Virus record (IMG/VR): IMGVR_UViG_3300000553_000005
Coordinates: 32,001 to 96,000 of that record
Length of the DNA stretch: 64,000 nt
DNA from: a virus
Direction: 5' to 3' (one strand)
In this document: in pieces, positions 3 through 40,367 of the stretch
How positions within the stretch are numbered: the first letter of the stretch is position 1
Layout of the letters: every line of letters starts with the position of its first letter
Notes under the pieces: model-generated
Seen by the model: only the letters and a program-made list of their open reading frames with translations
Database searches by the model: none
Told to the model about the DNA's origin: nothing
Position numbers and translations under genes: made by a program

Positions 3-896
3 GAAAGAAAGAATAACGCTAGAAGATGGCCCAAAAATGGTCCAAGGCCCTCTATGTGCAAAGAGGACTCTATAGGATCCGTTAAAACTACTTTAGAGAT
101 AAAAGACTCTTTATTTTATTCAAGGTCTGATGGAAAACAAGAAACAAATCACTCTATAGCACTTTCTAACCCAGTTGAGTTCAACTCCCAGCTACTCCCA
201 TTAGATCCTTATTTTTTGGGACTTTGGCTTGGGGATGGACATAGTGCCAATGTATCCATAACTACTATGGATGAAGAGATTAAGAACTACATTTATAAAA
301 TAGCTGAATCATATGGATTAGAGGTTACAATTAACTCTAATGGTTCTAAAGCCTCTGAATACTCTTTAACTTCTAAACAGCACGGCTCTAAAAAAGGAGA
401 ATGGGGAAACAGCCCTGATAGAAATATCCTTCTGTCTAAATTCAGAGAAATGGGAATCTTAAAGAATAAACACATTCCAGAAATTTACTTGATATCCTCC
501 ATTGATCAGCGATTAGCCTTACTCCAAGGATTGATGGACACAGATGGGGGGTGCCATAGAAGTCGATGTGAGTTTAATAATACTAATGAAAATATAGCAA
601 GGGGCGTTTTCTATTTAGCCGCCTCTCTTGGTCTTAAGCCTTATTGGAATGAAAAAAGAGCAACTTATTACGGAAAAGATTGTGGAACATGTTACAGAGT
701 TACCTGGACTTCTACTAAGCCGGTATTTAGATTAACAAGAAAATTGGCTGAACTTCAGACTACTTCAAAACCTTGTCAAAACAGAAGGTTCATCGTATCT
801 GTAGAGCCAGAAAAAGAGCAAGAAGTTCGATGTATAACCGTTGATAGCCCAGATGGCTTGTTTCTATTCGGAGATAATTTCAATGTAACACATAAT
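3..896 (+). mobile_element. Intein 1 (C-terminal part) with LAGLIDADG endonuclease
   Basis: PYFLGLWLGDG and LLQGLMDTDG endonuclease blocks; block F/G VRCITVDSPDGLFLFGDNFNVTHN followed by Ser at 897. Confidence 0.9.
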
Positions 897-3605
897 AGCG
901 CCCTAGTTTCGGCAATTGCATCCTATAAGCTTTATCGTCTTTTGAATATTCGTTCCCCTCAGGACCATTATGGTTTGATTCCTGGATCTCCCATAGATTT
1001 TACTTTTATGGCCCAGGACACAGAAGGCTCCTCTCGTTTATTTGATAAAATGAAGGAAGACGTTAACCGTGCCCCTTTCTTTGCTCCCTATTTAAAAAAT
1101 ATGACCACAGAGGAAATGACTTTCGTTTCTGATGCTGACCGATATAAAAGAGATATCACTCCTTCAATTACCGTTGCCAGCTTGCCTTGTTTAGAAGAGA
1201 ATGAATTAATATGGACTTCTAAAGGACTAACCCCAATTAAGGACACACAAATAGGGGATTTAGTGTGGGACATGAATGGAAATTTGAAAAAAGTTTTGAA
1301 CAAAACTTACAATGAAGAAAGCCTATTGGCAGTTTCTACTCGTAATTTTAAGGGTGACCCCCTTCTTTTAACCCCTCAACACACTTGTATTTCAGTATCT
1401 AACAAAGAGGCTTTTGAAAAACTTCCATATTTATACAAATGGAATCTCGCTGGAAAAGGGCTTAAAGATTGCTTGAATAATAGCAAACGAGATGATACTA
1501 AGGGTATAGATATCACACTAACAGAGGATTATGCCAGCAAATTAGCTGAGGGGGACTATTTTCTATATCCCCAAATTTCTTTGAATCAAAGAGTGGCCTC
1601 TTCACTTGACAATACTCAAGCAAAGTCACCAGCCTATTTTCAAAAACATTTAGGAGGGAAGCTTTGTGAACATACTTCAGTTAGATGTAGCTCTGTTGAA
1701 CTACCTGTGACAGTTGATTCATGCCGATTATATGGGTTATACATAGCTGAAGGCTCAACTATGGGGAAAGTAGGAAAATTTAAAAATTCAGTTAAGTGGA
1801 CCTTCCATATAAATGAGCAAACCACTTATGCTGCGTTTATTCAACAAACTCTTCAAACGGAATTTGGACTGAACAGCACGTTAATCTTAACTCCTGAGTG
1901 TAATAGATGTGATGTATTCTGCTCCTCATCAGAATTAGCAAGAGGGCTGGCCTTCTGGTTTGGAGAAGGATGCGAAAATAAAGTTGTTCCCAATGAAGCT
2001 CTCTATTGGCCCATCGAATTACAAAAAGCGTTGATCCAAGGGTATTATGAAGGAGATGGGTGTGATAATAGGAGAATTGCTCCAACAGTATCAAAAAAAC
2101 TAGCTTATTCTCTCTTCAATTTATTAATTCAGACTGGACAACGACCGTCAATTCTGTTTCGCCCAGGCTATATAACTAAATATAAACAAAAAGAAGTAAT
2201 TCATAAGGATTCCTGGTATGTAGAAATTTGTAAACAAGATAACCATTGTAGATTTTTTCAAAAAGTTAAGGGAGTAAACTACTATTGGTCAAAGATAACG
2301 GCTATCACTCCTATTGAAAATAAACATCCTGTTGTTGATATTGAAGTAGAGGATACCCATTCTTTCTTAACTAAATTTGCAGTGGTTCACAATTGCACCA
2401 CTAACAAAGTTCGTGGCCCTAGTTCATTCTTATTGGCATTAGACGAGTTCGCTTTCTATAGAAATCAAATTGGAGTTAACTCTGAAGCCATTTATAAAGC
2501 CGCTGCCCCCGCCACCATGCAGTTTAAGGCTGGAGGGACTAGAGGGGGGAAACGAGAATCCATGATTCTCATTATTACTTCTCCTAACGGTAAGATAGGT
2601 AAGTACTATGAACTTTACAGTTCCGCTATGAAAATGGGGAATGATTCTGACATTCTAGCTTTTCGATGCTCTACGGCAGAGATGAATCCTCGTTCTGATG
2701 TAGATTTCTTAAAAAAAGAACATAGAGAGAATCCCGATGTGTTCAAGGCTGAATATGGTGGAGAATTCCTAGAAGCGGCGGAATCTTATGTCAAACTATC
2801 TGTGTTTGAATCCTGTATTGATCAAGAAAGAAAAAATTTCTGTCAGTTTACTCCGGAAACTATAGGAGTAAAATATTTTTGGGGGTTGGATTTAGGTATG
2901 CAATATGACGGAACTGCTTTAGCTGTTTGTCATTGGCAACCTACTTTCGATTTGATTCCTGGAGCTACTTTAGTATATGATTTTATAGATAGAAAAATAG
3001 TAGGAGAAGAAGAGTATTCAAATGTTAAACAATTACCATTGGACGATATCTTACTATGGTTAAAACGCATGAACGGACTCCTACCTTGTTTTAAAGGGGC
3101 AACTGATCAACATGGTGGTTCTATGCTCGTTCAATTATTGGAGAAATATGGAATCAATGGGTTAGAATTAGTTCATTTAACTTCCGGTATAAATTCTCAG
3201 ATGTATTTAACCCTTAAAGGATTGATGGAACAGAAAAAAGCATCATTTCCAGCAGAGAAGAAGTTTATTGATGAAATGAAATTGGTAGAAGCTCATTATG
3301 TTGGAAAATATCAAATAAAAGTTCAGGCCCCAGCAGAAAAAGATGCTCATGATGATCAGGCCGATGCTGTGGCTCTTGCTTCCTGGGTTGCTCAACAATG
3401 GGCTATGAACGAAGGGGCTAGAGAATTTGCAGATATCTTAAGTGGCATAGACCCTGCTAGACTGGCCCGAAATCATGGTCTTATGTCTTTGGGGTTTGAT
3501 CCTAATATTAGTTCTATGGCGGAACTAAAATCACATGAAAGACAGCTTGGTATATTACAGAGATCAAATCTCAATTCCGTTGTTAATCCTTTTAGAAGAA
3601 GATGA
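3..3605 (+). CDS. terL: Terminase large subunit (5'-truncated by window), containing two inteins
   Basis: Frame is open from position 3. Exteins show the Walker B region VRGPSSFLLALDEFAF, coupling motif IITSPNG, FKAEYGGEF, and nuclease motifs WGLDLG and HDDQADA. Lies upstream of the virion genes. Confidence 0.9.
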   Translation, partial: ERKNNARRWPKNGPRPSMCKEDSIGSVKTTLEIKDSLFYSRSDGKQETNHSIALSNPVEFNSQLLPLDPYFLGLWLGDGHSANVSITTMDEEIKNYIYKIAESYGLEVTINSNGSKASEYSLTSKQHGSKKGEWGNSPDRNILLSKFREMGILKNKHIPEIYLISSIDQRLALLQGLMDTDGGCHRSRCEFNNTNENIARGVFYLAASLGLKPYWNEKRATYYGKDCGTCYRVTWTSTKPVFRLTRKLAELQTTSKPCQNRRFIVSVEPEKEQEVRCITVDSPDGLFLFGDNFNVTHNSALVSAIASYKLYRLLNIRSPQDHYGLIPGSPIDFTFMAQDTEGSSRLFDKMKEDVNRAPFFAPYLKNMTTEEMTFVSDADRYKRDITPSITVASLPCLEENELIWTSKGLTPIKDTQIGDLVWDMNGNLKKVLNKTYNEESLLAVSTRNFKGDPLLLTPQHTCISVSNKEAFEKLPYLYKWNLAGKGLKDCLNNSKRDDTKGIDITLTEDYASKLAEGDYFLYPQISLNQRVASSLDNTQAKSPAYFQKHLGGKLCEHTSVRCSSVELPVTVDSCRLYGLYIAEGSTMGKVGKFKNSVKWTFHINEQTTYAAFIQQTLQTEFGLNSTLILTPECNRCDVFCSSSELARGLAFWFGEGCENKVVPNEALYWPIELQKALIQGYYEGDGCDNRRIAPTVSKKLAYSLFNLLIQTGQRPSILFRPGYITKYKQKEVIHKDSWYVEICKQDNHCRFFQKVKGVNYYWSKITAITPIENKHPVVDIEVEDTHSFLTKFAVVHNCTTNKVRGPSSFLLALDEFAFYRNQIGVNSEAIYKAAAPATMQFKAGGTRGGKRESMILIITSPNGKIGKYYELYSSAMKMGNDSDILAFRCSTAEMNPRSDVDFLKKEHRENPDVFKAEYGGEFLEAAESYVKLSVFESCIDQERKNFCQFTPETIGVKYFWGLDLGMQYDGTALAVCHWQPTFDLIPGATLVYDFIDRKIVGEEEYSNVKQLPLDDILLWLKRMNGLLPCFKGATDQHGGSMLVQLLEKYGINGLELVHLTSGINSQMYLTLKGLMEQKKASFPAEKKFIDEMKLVEAHYVGKYQIKVQAPAEKDAHDDQADAVALASWVAQQWAMNEGAREFADILSGIDPARLARNHGLMSLGFDPNISSMAELKSHERQLGILQRSNLNSVVNPFRRR
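1188..2393 (+). mobile_element. Intein 2 (402 aa) with LAGLIDADG endonuclease
   Basis: Starts CLEENELIW; block B LTPQH; LYGLYIAEG and LIQGYYEGDG; ends VVDIEVEDTHSFLTKFAVVHN followed by Cys. Confidence 0.92.
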
Positions 3606-31046: not shown

Positions 31047-31132
31047 CCTCCCTTTGCCACACGGTGATGGCAGTGGCCTTTTAAGTCACCTTCCGTAAGG
31101 AATAGCGGGTTCAACTCCCGTGGGGAGGACCA
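31047..31132 (+). tRNA. Atypical tRNA, anticodon UUU (Lys) with long variable arm
   Basis: CCTCCCT/GGGGAGG-A-CCA; D stem GCCA/TGGC; GTGGC-CTTTTAA-GTCAC; V arm TTCC-GTAA-GGAA; GCGGG-TTCAACT-CCCGT. Confidence 0.75.
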
Positions 31133-31138
31133 TTCAAT

Positions 31139-31241
31139 GCGCCTATAGTTTAATGGTAGAACAGTTGGCCTATACCCAACCACCGAAAGGTAGCCGCTAG
31201 ATGTGCGGAGTGTCTTGGTTCAAATCCAGGTGGGCGTACCA
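31139..31241 (+). tRNA. tRNA-like RNA, anticodon loop CCUAUAC (UAU register, C33) with 33-nt two-hairpin variable region
   Basis: GCGCCTA/TGGGCGT-A-CCA; canonical D arm; GTTGG/CCAAC; ACC-GAAA-GGT and CCGC-TAGATGT-GCGG; CTTGG-TTCAAAT-CCAGG. Confidence 0.7.
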
Positions 31242-31293
31242 AAATAAGGAATCGAACTTCTAGACTTTCTGATTCATAATTAATGAGGTTCGT

Positions 31294-31866
31294 ATGCAAT
31301 GTAAAAAATGTGGGGCAGAGTTCACTCCAGGAAAAGGGCTAAAGAGCTTCTGTAGCTTAAAATGTAGAAATTCTCAAAATTTTAGTGAAGAGAGTAAAAA
31401 ACTCAAATCATTAAAAAATAAAGAGTTTCATGCTTCTTTAACTGAAGAGGAACTTGTAAGACTAAAAGATAAACTAGATAAAATGAGAGAAAAGAGAACC
31501 ACCAGATTTGATTACCTGTTTTCCAAAAAGTTTGAAGACTTGGCTTGGGATTCTAAAAGAGCCAGAGTTATTGTTGAACAAGAGTTGAAATGTAATAGAT
31601 GTAAGATTGATTCTTGGTTTGGCCTTCCAATTACTCTAGAAGTAGATCATAAAAATGGGAACAACAATGATGATTCAAGAGAAAATCTTGAGGGTCTGTG
31701 CCCAAACTGCCATAGTCAAACTCCAACTTGGAGAGGTAGGCATGAAAATAATAAACAAAAGAATCTTAAAATGATTAGAGTTCAGAAAGTTCTTGAAGAG
31801 ATCGTTGCTAGAGATAGTGACCCAGCAGCATTTTCCAGTACACAGCAGCACAAAAGCAAAAAGTGA
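31294..31866 (+). CDS. HNH homing endonuclease
   Basis: N-terminal CKKCG..FCSLKC; CNRC...LEVDHKNGNNNDDSRENLEGLCPNCHSQT. Confidence 0.9.
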   Translation: MQCKKCGAEFTPGKGLKSFCSLKCRNSQNFSEESKKLKSLKNKEFHASLTEEELVRLKDKLDKMREKRTTRFDYLFSKKFEDLAWDSKRARVIVEQELKCNRCKIDSWFGLPITLEVDHKNGNNNDDSRENLEGLCPNCHSQTPTWRGRHENNKQKNLKMIRVQKVLEEIVARDSDPAAFSSTQQHKSKK

Positions 31867-32533
31867 AGGAGAAACAACAGACCTCCCTTTTGTCGGGAAT
31901 AACGCCATGTTGTAAAGGTCAATGGCTTGCTTTTGTGAAACTGGACGAGAACTAGCGCGATAGCAAATGAGCAGGTTTGCGACCTAGCCGCTAGCTAGTC
32001 AGGAGCCTTCGCAAAGCCACCTGGAGCAACTCGTAAAACTCCAAAAAGTATCTTGGTGCTACACTGAGGGAGGCACGTTGTAAGCTCCCGGTCACAGGAA
32101 CTACGCTGCAAAATCCAAGACTCACCCTGGACAGGCATGAAGACCAGGGATGTAAATCAGGGTGCCATAACTCGTAAGGGCTGGCGATGAGAAAGGAAGT
32201 TGATAGATCGGCAACCACCCAAAAAAATCTAAGGTCGGATGTTTCAGTTGAGAGGCTGAAATGAGCAAAATGACAGTGGGGGAGAGGTCAACAAGACTCA
32301 AACGAGAACTCACCATCCGACTAACACGTTTCTTACTGGTCCCATTCACGGTAAGCTGGAGAAAACGGCTACTTGTTCCTGAAACGATAGGGAACTAACA
32401 ATCCAGAACCAAGCTGATTGATGCAAAGAAGTTGAATGGGTAATCGTAACGGATACTTGGGACGGAGAAAATGGGGGACCGTGATTACATGAAGCCCATA
32501 ACAGAGAAACCCAAGACAAATCTTTCCGCTACG
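31803..32533 (+). ncRNA. Large ornate structured RNA (~730 nt; ROOL/GOLLD-class candidate)
   Basis: GC-richer, no credible ORF, many helices: 31849-59/31927-37 (11 bp), 31817-22/32090-95, 32125-30/32144-49, 32234-41/32314-21, 32341-48/32433-40; GNRA-capped hairpins; within the tRNA cluster. Confidence 0.7.
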
Positions 32534-32578
32534 TTTATTTTTCTAAAAATTGGGTATTAACACACATAGGAGCAATAC

Positions 32579-32625
32579 ATGAGTCGTTTCACCTGAATAA
32601 CCTCCAACGCTTAACGTTTGGAGGT
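32579..32625 (+). promoter_or_regulatory. uORF MSRFT* plus RBS-sequestering hairpin
   Basis: AGGAG RBS, ATG 32579 to TGA 32596; hairpin ACCTCCAACG/CGTTTGGAGGT (32600-32625) buries the GGAGGT of the next gene. Confidence 0.55.
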
Positions 32626-32630
32626 GCCTT

Positions 32631-32768
32631 ATGGCCCAATCAGCAAAGCACAGCAAGTCTGTGCAAAAGATGTCCGATGAGCAGTTGCAGTCGGTCATCA
32701 GTAGTGGCTCTCTTCTTCACGCTGCGGCTCGTTTTGAGTTGCAGAGAAGGGGGGCTAGCAGGAAGTAA
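32631..32768 (+). CDS. Small basic protein (45 aa; not in ORF track)
   Basis: GGAGGT RBS; MAQSAKHSKSVQKMSDEQLQSVISSGSLLHAAARFELQRRGASRK*. Confidence 0.65.
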   Translation: MAQSAKHSKSVQKMSDEQLQSVISSGSLLHAAARFELQRRGASRK

Positions 32769-32774
32769 CACAAG

Positions 32775-32848
32775 TGGGGTGTAGGCTAATGGTAAACCAG
32801 AACCCTTTGAAGGTTCCCTTACAGGTTCAAGTCCTGTCGCCCTAACCA
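32775..32848 (+). tRNA. tRNA-Gln(UUG)
   Basis: TGGGGTG/CGCCCTA-A-CCA (U1-A72); GAACC-CTTTGAA-GGTTC; ACAGG-TTCAAGT-CCTGT. Confidence 0.9.
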
Positions 32849-32856
32849 TCAATGTC

Positions 32857-32972
32857 GCTGAGTTGTTGAATCCTGAAGGATTTGTATCTGCATCGCCTCA
32901 GTGGGATGAATGCTGTGAAAACATGATAAAAGGCATTGTGCATTCTCCCAATCGGTATATCCGATTCTCAGC
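32857..32972 (+). ncRNA. Unclassified structured RNA C (116 nt)
   Basis: Closing stem GCTGAG/CTCAGC; hairpins AATCC/GGATT, AATGC/GCATT, AATCGG/CCGATT. Confidence 0.5.
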
Positions 32973-33085
32973 AGCTCCATTTCTACCAAGATACCACCCC
33001 AAGTCTTACTAGACTGTTATAATGAAGGGGTTGGAACACGTTAATGGTGAACAGTTTCCAGCTTCCTGCTAAAAAGCTGGCTTAT

Positions 33086-34386: not shown

Positions 34387-34504
34387 TTTGCGGGTCTTAA
34401 CTCAGAAATGAACAGAGACAGTCGTAACGTGTGGGCCAAGAGGGAAGCACCCTCTCCATCCCGGCAAAATTAGAAAGTCTAGCTAGCTTATCTAAACCCG
34501 CAAA
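34387..34504 (+). ncRNA. Unclassified structured RNA D (118 nt)
   Basis: 9-bp closing stem TTTGCGGGT/ACCCGCAAA; internal AGAGGG/CCCTCT hairpin. Confidence 0.45.
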
Positions 34505-34535
34505 CTTTTCAGTATTAACGCTTATAGGAGAAGGA

Positions 34536-35051
34536 ATGCCAACCAAGGATTTCATTCAAGCAGTGAATACTGAATATGCTAAGAGACAATCTTTCTCTCG
34601 TAAAAAATTGGAGAAACCATACAGTTACAGATTCTGGTACCCAATTTTCCCATCTAGCTGGCGTTTGTTTTGCTCTCGCTGGTGGTTACATTGGTTCACT
34701 CTTCATAATTATACACAGTTCTTCTCTATCAAATGGCAGAGAATGACCAGAGGCTACGCCGATGTGGATCTCTGGAACATGAACGACACATTGGCCTATC
34801 TTCTTCATGAGATGGCTGCTGATTTTACGGAAACCCATCACGGTTGTCCTTTCGGAACTACTTCTGAAGAATACCAGGAGCAACTGATTGTTATGGTTAG
34901 TGGTTTTGAAGCCATGTATGAGATGCTTTCAGAAGAAGGGATGCCTGACTACAACACTCCTGAATACAAAGTATGGATAGCTGACAAAGAGACTCGTTGG
35001 GAAGTTGGGATGAAGATCTTCAAAGAAGAATTTTCAGGACTGTGGGACTGA
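34536..35051 (+). CDS. Conserved hypothetical phage protein
   Basis: RGYADVDLWNM...HGCP...FSGLWD; start at ATG 34536 after AGGAG. Confidence 0.7.
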   Translation: MPTKDFIQAVNTEYAKRQSFSRKKLEKPYSYRFWYPIFPSSWRLFCSRWWLHWFTLHNYTQFFSIKWQRMTRGYADVDLWNMNDTLAYLLHEMAADFTETHHGCPFGTTSEEYQEQLIVMVSGFEAMYEMLSEEGMPDYNTPEYKVWIADKETRWEVGMKIFKEEFSGLWD

Positions 35052-35071
35052 AAAATTTCTGAAAATAAGTT

Positions 35072-35100
35072 GCCACAAAACTCTTAGAACACGGTATAAT
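35072..35100 (+). promoter_or_regulatory. Promoter motif RCYACAAA-N13-RGTATAAT
   Basis: GCCACAAA-N13-GGTATAAT. Confidence 0.7.
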
Positions 35101-35146
35101 AAAGTATGACAACGAGGCCGATGCCTCTAACTTAAAGGAGCCAACA

Positions 35147-35527
35147 ATGGCGAAGCGTTTTCTTATCAACGGTGTGGAAGTCCTGGCTGAAGATCTTGGC
35201 AGTGGGAAGTGGTGTGCGGTCCCGGTGGATCTCCCTGGCACTATTCTCAAGGTGCTGAGTGGGAAGATCAACATCAATGATTTCCTCAACCCCAGCAATC
35301 TCAACATCCAGCCTCTTGGGGACAAGGAAGAGGCCCAGGATGAGTGTGAGGGTTGCGCGTGTGAACAGGAGGCCCCGGCTCGTAGCAAGTCTAGCAAGAC
35401 CGTGCGCGAGTATCGCAAGGCCGAAGGTATGAACAAGACCGAGATGGCTGATTATCTGGGTGTCAGTCGCCGCACTCTTGGCCGCTGGGAAGATGCTGGC
35501 AAGCTGGCCTCTGAGGTCGGTCTGTAA
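35147..35527 (+). CDS. XRE-type HTH DNA-binding protein
   Basis: VREYRKAEGMNKTEMADYLGVSRRTLGRWE; AAGGAG RBS; visibly GC-richer than neighbours. Confidence 0.8.
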   Translation: MAKRFLINGVEVLAEDLGSGKWCAVPVDLPGTILKVLSGKININDFLNPSNLNIQPLGDKEEAQDECEGCACEQEAPARSKSSKTVREYRKAEGMNKTEMADYLGVSRRTLGRWEDAGKLASEVGL

Positions 35528-35534
35528 GTAGAAC

Positions 35535-35617
35535 TTCAGTGCTAGGGGCAAGAGGGACGCAAGAGTAGCGCTTGGCTGCGTCCTTCTGGAACGGCAAGTG
35601 CAAATCCGTCAACTGAA
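35535..35617 (+). ncRNA. Unclassified structured RNA E / structured 3' UTR (83 nt)
   Basis: TTCAGT/ACTGAA closing stem; 11-bp hairpin 35551-61/35577-87; ACGG/CCGT hairpin with GTGCAAAT loop. Confidence 0.4.
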
Positions 35618-37180: not shown

Positions 37181-37269
37181 GGCTTAAAATTTGCGTATCG
37201 TTTTTTCTTCTCGGTAATTGAGTATTAACACAAGAGGGACGAGTTCCCCCCATTTTAAAGGAGCATTAC

Positions 37270-40117: not shown

Positions 40118-40342
40118 ATGATTCATCAACATGAAAAACGCACTATCGAAATTCTAAGGATGATTCAAAGAGGAAATGGTCTGATTCGTGAGGCGGCTCT
40201 TCCCCATAAAGATGATTTAATTATGTTTCGTTTGACCAGTAAGGGGTTTATAAAAGCTATTGGATCTAACGTTGATACCGGAGAATCCCTTTTTAGCATT
40301 ACTAAAGAGGGTGAAAAAGAAGCCGGAAGAAACGAAAATTGA
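40118..40342 (+). CDS. Small winged-helix-like hypothetical protein
   Basis: GAGG RBS; L..KGFI...FSITKEG pattern. Confidence 0.5.
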   Translation: MIHQHEKRTIEILRMIQRGNGLIREAALPHKDDLIMFRLTSKGFIKAIGSNVDTGESLFSITKEGEKEAGRNEN

Positions 40343-40367
40343 GTATTAACTAGGTAGAAGGAAGTCT

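Follow-up and report, generated by a model that had tools for sequence, protein, structure and literature searches.

Phage tRNA islands hold more than tRNAs. Two small RNAs of unknown role, RNA C and RNA D, are produced from the tRNA region of T4 (PMC3014915). GOLLD (RF01998) and ROOL (RF03087), structured phage RNAs that are likewise without a known function, often lie in or beside tRNA islands (bioRxiv 10.1101/2024.12.08.627333). In this study, we describe a new, compact, covariation-supported motif, which possesses strictly conserved unpaired nucleotides and is small enough for direct biochemistry.

The DNA analyzed here (the window) is a stretch of 64,000 nucleotides, positions 32,001 to 96,000 of the virus record IMGVR_UViG_3300000553_000005, which is 139.8 kb in length and estimated to be 49% complete. 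Coordinates are those of the window unless another locus is named. Since the phage encodes an intein-bearing large terminase, a tail sheath, a helicase and an NAD ligase, it is classified as a jumbo phage on the basis of these predicted products. The large terminase (1183 aa, 54-3605) has a central insertion (residues 637-782), which matches a ribonucleotide-reductase PHROG and is probably an intein.

An ORF-free stretch sits within the tRNA island of the window. Upstream of it are tRNA-Lys (31047-31132), an aberrant 100-nt tRNA (31139-31238) and an HNH gene on the + strand (31294-31866), which shows a weak Pfam match to HNH_3. Downstream of it, a 45-aa gene on the + strand (32631-32768), whose ribosome-binding site (RBS) is buried in a hairpin and which serves as the synteny anchor, is followed by tRNA-Gln (starting at 32775). 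The stretch comprises three parts, all on the + strand: a 5' extension of the RNA (31834-32043), common only to the window and contig L071; the core motif (32044-32152), recognized by blastn, nhmmer, a covariance model and covariation; and an ORF-free 3' part (32153-32536), for which no homologue was detected. A T-rich run (32537-32547, + strand), read from the sequence, is the likely right-hand end of the transcript, and similarity to the relatives of the phage resumes there. The promoter-like motif AATTGRGTATTAAC (32548-32563, + strand) marks the start of the next unit. It recurs at 37216-37231 and, with two mismatches, at 40337-40352 just upstream of the helicase gene; it is placed ahead of transcription units and is probably a phage-specific promoter. 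At the equivalent places, the relatives G004 and G006 possess a different motif (a hairpin plus GGATTGAAA). The start of the island is marked in both the window phage (30737-30790) and G004 (L018 13850-13905, - strand) by a conserved TTGACAAC...TATAT promoter-like site, which is followed by TTGCTTGGTGC.

The first-pass annotation had described a single ornate RNA of ~730 nt without a credible ORF in this place. The region 31867-32545 is indeed non-coding. Each of the six frames contains 8-17 stops across the stretch, and no frame opens when any single stop codon is reassigned. The 3-base periodicity of the stretch gave z=-0.49, as against 2.2 to 12.9 for the neighboring genes. No match was obtained when the stop-free pieces were compared with Pfam and PHROG. 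A homologue search with the only ORF in the stretch that has an RBS (45 aa) was empty, and the stretch gave only chance-level scores in tblastn with 3,884 ORFs of related loci as queries. The GC content of the stretch (0.471) is raised, as in the adjacent tRNA genes, and belongs to the top 4% of windows, the genome mean being 0.399 (sd 0.035). A second GC-rich patch (0.47-0.52) is found at 34431-35551, where ORFs overlap on both strands. The 206-aa 'ORF' at 34431-35051 has neither a Pfam match nor 3-base periodicity (z=0.27), and 34632-34786 within it matches G006 at 69% identity. The region 34431-35551 may be another non-coding RNA region.

All of the helix strings quoted in the first-pass annotation were found in place. 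The dense complementarity that it had seen was not above chance, since 53 inverted 6-mers were counted and dinucleotide shuffles contain 54±9. No inverted repeats of ≥9 nt were detected inside 31867-32560. On the + strand, the folding z-score of the whole stretch was -0.11, and all sliding 150-nt windows gave |z|≤1.01. Because tRNAs score no better in the same test, the thermodynamics decide nothing either way.

The 5' end of the RNA had been placed inside the tail of the HNH ORF, and this proved correct: the last ~18 codons run into the RNA. Homologues of the HNH gene number 151. The conserved part of the protein ends near 31810, and the last ~18 residues are absent from the homologues. Therefore, the ORF runs into foreign sequence from about 31810. 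In 7/7 contexts (L002, L038, L039, L040, L042, L043 and L044), HNH homologues lie inside phage tRNA clusters; no similarity to the RNA was detected around them in these loci. In L038, L039, L040 and the window, the HNH gene directly adjoins an aberrant tRNA of ~90-100 nt, whose anticodon is UAU and whose variable region is long, and in L038 a partial copy of the 3' end of the aberrant tRNA follows the HNH gene. By analogy with T4 SegB, which targets the T4 tRNA region, the HNH protein looks like a free-standing homing endonuclease that targets the aberrant tRNA gene.

The core motif (32044-32152) consists of ~105 nt and five helices. The closing stem, P1 (32051-56/32115-20) and P2 (32057-59/32108-10), encloses a hairpin arm made up of P3 (32064-66/32095-97) and P4 (32068-72/32085-89), and the hairpin P5 (32125-30/32144-49) follows; all lie on the + strand. 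Three unpaired blocks are invariant, namely UACAC, GGAAYUNCGCUGCAAAR and the P5 loop AGGCAUR. The block ACACAGC (31840-46), located upstream of the core, is complementary to the invariant GCUG at 32105-08.

A helicase search led to four related contigs at 62% identity, including the complete 313.6-kb G004, and a profile of the 45-aa protein family led to contig L071. On the latter, a phage tRNA island, one tmRNA and eight tRNAs are encoded. A homologue of the motif was found in L071 between tRNA-Lys and tRNA-Gln, which is the same placing as in the window. The similarity was detected by blastn (window 32030-32122, 74% identity over 94 nt, E=3e-10) and by nhmmer (window 32003-32142, E=6.5e-9). 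Two blocks are nearly identical in the two sequences, and the hairpins between and after them differ in their stems and have like loops. The indel lengths are not divisible by three, and the frames into which the two blocks fall differ in the two phages. Thus, coding does not explain the conservation.

A covariance model was built from the window sequence alone with P1-P5, and 326 kb of related loci were searched. Copies were recovered in L071 (61 bits, E=2e-13), L036 (35 bits, E=1.8e-6), G004 (L018 13278-13370; 32.9 bits, E=6.4e-6) and L024 (29 bits, E=6.9e-5), together with a weaker match beside the G004 tmRNA. In this tmRNA-adjacent copy, the true 5' half lies ~60 nt further upstream, owing to a large insert in the P3/P4 arm. 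At least three lineages of related large phages carry the motif in their tRNA islands, and every copy is on the tRNA strand. G004 carries two copies and the genome of the window phage carries one. At the sensitivity used, the motif was absent from G006, a 95%-complete relative; thus, it is not essential to the clade. When the whole records of five relatives were scanned with covariance model R3, only one known copy was recovered, and the first-look filter is therefore insensitive for this model.

The homologue and covariation check proposed in the first-pass annotation could be carried out on these copies, and the core helices covary. The core alignment, which was fitted to the model, contains six distinct rows from three lineages. 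Standard pairs occupy 95.7% of its cells, as compared with 68.2% in shuffles (0/500 as high). Both sides have changed in 17/23 core pairs, and the covariation score is 0.652 versus 0.200. As a control, the partner was slid by 1-3 columns, and pairing was then 31-43% with 2-5 double-changed pairs. RNAalifold on a plain, unfitted MAFFT alignment independently predicted P1 and P2; of the nine pairs, five are compensatory, and no pair of P1 is broken. In every copy, P5 forms a hairpin whose stem differs and whose AGGCAUR loop is conserved. The copies belong to one new motif in that they have kept P1-P5 through compensatory changes, share the invariant blocks and lie on the tRNA strand of an island.

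In the GenBank phage collection, blastn with the full stretch and with the core gave nothing at E≤1e-5; the best matches (E=4) fall inside genes of Vibrio and Photobacterium phages. Four words taken from the stretch were sought as exact matches in viral and genome collections, with either no hits or chance hits. BLAST of the stretch against the whole records G001-G006 returned only a 16-nt seed, which was later explained as the motif.

In the 5' extension, five further helices were assigned on the + strand: Ha (31834-39/31940-45), Hb (31849-59/31927-37), Hc (31952-57/31989-94), Hd (31963-67/31976-80) and Hf (32023-26/32039-42). Conserved short blocks flank these helices, whose sequences differ between the window and L071 with the pairing kept. 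When these helices and the core are taken together, 49/49 corresponding pairs are standard in both phages; 23 of them are unchanged, one has changed on one side and 25 have changed on both. In a permutation test, the window helices were mapped onto L071 through the conserved anchors (±3 nt), and the variable segments of L071 were shuffled. The score was 30/31 against 23.3±2.5 in the shuffles (P=0.0026 with ±3 nt; P=0.011 with ±5 nt). Independent single-sequence folds of the window and L071 show the same hairpins. These results, which come from two sequences and a hand-made correspondence, are suggestive of a compensatory structure in the 5' extension that is shared with L071. With the extension, the RNA reaches ~320 nt in the window phage and ~250 nt in L071.

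Among the helices of the first-pass annotation, TCCAGT/ACTGGA, CACAAAAGCAA/TTGCTTTTGTG (an 11-bp stem) and CCCTGG/CCAGGG were supported by comparison with the other phages. For GTCGGATG/CATCCGAC, the TTTCAG hairpin, CCCATTCA/TGAATGGG, the GTGACC/GGTCAC long-range helix and the 5'-3' closing helix, no comparative support was obtained, because their region has no homologue. The proposal of a structured non-coding RNA of no known family on the + strand is supported, and that of a single ~730-nt unit is not, only 32044-32152 being conserved with covariation in three lineages. The comparisons establish that the element is non-coding, that it has homologues with a conserved secondary structure, and where and on which strand it lies; its transcription, processing, stability and partner are inferred.

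We tentatively favor, with a confidence slightly short of even, the reading that a structured RNA without a match among the known families is encoded by 31834-32152 (+ strand) and acts as a co-transcribed, processed and stable small RNA with a docking role. The island promoter would drive transcription of the motif together with that of the HNH gene and the tRNAs. The nucleases of tRNA processing would then release it as a stable small RNA, and its invariant unpaired nucleotides would serve to dock a partner, either a protein or another RNA and probably one from the translation or tRNA machinery. If the partner belongs to the translation or tRNA-defense machinery, the motif would bear on how large phages take over or protect translation. 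A somewhat unlikely reading is that the motif forms the core of a new class of functional RNAs restricted to the tRNA islands of jumbo phages, either as a small ribozyme or as a binder of polymerase, of the ribosome or of tRNA enzymes, and that it lies here perhaps within a multi-domain RNA of 320-700 nt.

The extent of the RNA depends on the 3' part (32153-32536). Neither nhmmer nor blastn detected a homologue of this part in any of the related loci, including L071, and it shows no 3-base periodicity. It contains the helices 32234/32314 and 32341/32433 of the first-pass annotation and a stem-closed module at 32440-32536. The folding z-scores of its modules range from +0.5 to -1.8, with boundaries chosen after the fact, and are not above chance. 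On this comparison, the ~390 nt up to the T-run at 32537 appear to be lineage-specific sequence. We therefore consider it unlikely that one RNA of ~700 nt (31834-32545) is the functional unit and represents a new giant class, in which the 105-nt motif is the slowly evolving core and the flanks have diverged. The ORF-free, GC-raised stretch does run unbroken to the T-run, the island of G004 begins with ~1 kb that lacks ORFs, in the middle of which the second motif copy lies, L071 shares 250-320 nt and thus more than the core, and gaps of 880-1180 nt without genes recur upstream of the 45-aa gene in the relatives that possess it. However, in addition to the missing 3' homologue, the RNA of L071 ends at P5 and a U-run, which are followed by an RBS and a small gene (a 58-aa ORF); folding and complementarity equal chance, and the content of the flanks is wholly different between lineages. 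Of the new giant RNA class that had been suggested, the part that is supported is the match to no known family; the giant size is not supported.

The same arrangement in L071, where P5 is directly followed by the U-run, the RBS and the 58-aa ORF, would fit a cis-acting transcription element, either a processive antiterminator of the put/EAR type with which RNA polymerase would pass the highly structured tRNA island, or a riboswitch-like attenuator of the sequence downstream. In G004, one copy precedes the first tRNAs, at a distance of ~0.5 kb from the island promoter. Antitermination RNAs such as HK022 put and EAR are compact stem-loops with conserved unpaired nucleotides, which act in cis from inside a long, structured unit of transcription. 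RNAs that bind a ligand or polymerase typically combine variable helices with unpaired nucleotides that do not vary, and this also counts for a cis element. On the other hand, the U-run after P5 is missing in the window, L036, L018 and L024, and the content downstream lacks conservation. An alternative pairing of terminator and antiterminator was not found, and there is no similarity to the riboswitches or leaders of Rfam. A cis-acting role is accordingly improbable.

A role of the motif in cutting the polycistronic island transcript, as a self-cleaving ribozyme or as a module recognized by a nuclease, seems somewhat less probable still. Several helices of the motif meet in a compact junction whose nucleotides are strictly conserved, the tRNAs and mRNAs on either side have to be cut apart, and small ribozymes are frequent in phage DNA. 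However, it matches no ribozyme family of Rfam, and this reading is pure inference.

The DNA upstream of the 45-aa gene was compared among the relatives. The leader, the hairpin-buried RBS, the 45-aa gene and tRNA-Gln are conserved in them, and the DNA upstream of these elements differs. The 45-aa gene is conserved in the G004 and G006 groups, L057 and L071. Its family (MAQS..H.KSV..M...QL..V..SGSLL.AAA.YEL), which is accompanied by a short upstream ORF and the RBS-burying hairpin, was found at 32553-32768 of the window, L018 7782-8030 (- strand), L046 3930-4130, L057 1205-1409 and L071 145-279. The family is thus conserved in several phage tRNA islands, and a profile search of 1.8 billion proteins returned no more than 16 representatives. 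The gene has its closest relative (80% identity) on an ENA contig (sample ERZ1426850) with a gene-free gap of 920 nt. The anchor word scan matched mostly unrelated ribosome-binding sites.

In the G004 group, the slot contains tRNA-Gly, tRNA-Ala and stem-closed modules, which carry a few compensatory changes of their own; in G006, it contains a tmRNA, tRNA-Thr and a protein gene. The RNA content of the window was sought in the syntenic slot of two near-complete relatives, and no counterpart was found. The syntenic modules A and C of G004 were considered as homologues of the stretch and rejected, because their covariance models do not match the window. A 375-nt module of the G004-group slot (L025/L018 8050-8694, - strand) is present in L025, L021 and L027, absent from L036 and L033, and partly replaced by a diverged version in L024; this pattern suggests a mobile or rapidly exchanged RNA module. 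Since the content differs by lineage, the slot upstream of the 45-aa gene is regarded as hypervariable. This variability (tRNAs, a tmRNA, a protein gene, other modules and the 375-nt segment that is present or absent), together with thermodynamics that equal chance, would be expected if the stretch, apart from the short conserved blocks, were functionless spacer from HNH-mediated rearrangement of the slot. Such an origin is very unlikely, because it accounts neither for the compensatory substitutions in five to ten helices nor for the fact that a structure model recovered copies. As regards the core, it stands contradicted already.

Known RNA families were searched with Rfam. At the gathering score, only tRNAs were detected over the window, and nothing was found in the stretch when 31200-33000 (1.8 kb) was searched with permissive filters at E≤10. 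The same library does detect tRNAs, tmRNAs and group I introns in the related islands. The cmsearch check advised in the first-pass annotation was thus run, with zero matches: the covariance models of ROOL (RF03087) and GOLLD (RF01998; its conserved 3' region in particular) were unmatched at the gathering score over the window and at E≤10 over 31200-33000, and those of OLE (RF01071) and HEARO (RF02033) were unmatched including at E≤10. The HNH protein beside the stretch has 190 aa, which we take to be far too small for an IscB. The lack of RNase P, tmRNA and group I/II intron signatures, which had been noted from the sequence, was confirmed. Rfam was silent at E≤10 for RNase P, the group II intron and the group I intron (RF00028), and no split gene flanks the stretch. 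For tmRNA (RF00023 and the permuted forms), ARAGORN and Rfam were both negative, and there is no tRNA-like domain. Because the same library works on the related islands yet finds nothing in the stretch, ROOL, GOLLD, OLE, HEARO, group I and II introns, tmRNA and RNase P can be regarded as excluded at this sensitivity. In the related islands, group I introns were found in the tRNA genes of L038 (1188-1421, E=5.6e-7) and L046 (489-682, E=6.6e-11). The L038 intron scores below the Rfam gathering score and would be missed by a default scan.

In every copy of the motif, one frame of the invariant strand translates as N-(Y/F)-A-A-K and meets a stop within 1-9 codons; in the window, this frame (32096-32149) has no preceding start codon. 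The islands of the relatives carry tmRNA genes, one motif copy abuts such a gene, and no tmRNA was found when the 49%-complete genome of the window phage was searched. A tmRNA-like tag template, or the remnant of one, is nevertheless scarcely credible. In addition to the negative ARAGORN and Rfam results and the lack of a tRNA-like domain, a profile of the motif detected nothing in four phage tmRNAs at E≤10, and L071 and G004 possess canonical tmRNAs as well. The N-(Y/F)-A-A-K peptide end is also unlike the usual hydrophobic tag.

Phage tRNA islands are a frequent site of ROOL and GOLLD (bioRxiv 10.1101/2024.12.08.627333), but the divergent relative of these RNAs proposed in the first-pass annotation has next to no chance of being correct, since neither model finds a match and the conserved unit is far smaller.

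The favored reading, a processed small RNA with a docking role, can be compared with the known systems as follows. GOLLD and ROOL measure ~580 and >800 nt, whereas the conserved unit here is ~105 nt (up to ~320 nt), and nothing suggests that it forms multimeric cages. The put and EAR RNAs act in cis; the position of the present motif relative to promoters is not constant. tmRNA is encoded in the same islands of the relatives, and the invariant strand of the motif resembles a short tag-like frame; however, tmRNA has a tRNA-like domain, and the motif has neither such a domain nor model or profile similarity to tmRNA. The giant phages that bear the motif are uncultured, and their islands also carry tmRNAs, intron-bearing tRNAs and putative homing endonucleases. 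In the T4 tRNA cluster, the free-standing homing endonuclease SegB is likewise present, comparable to the HNH gene of the window. Like RNA C and RNA D of T4, the motif would be a small non-tRNA RNA from a phage tRNA cluster, here from uncultured jumbo phages, and its relation to the T4 RNAs is one of analogy only.
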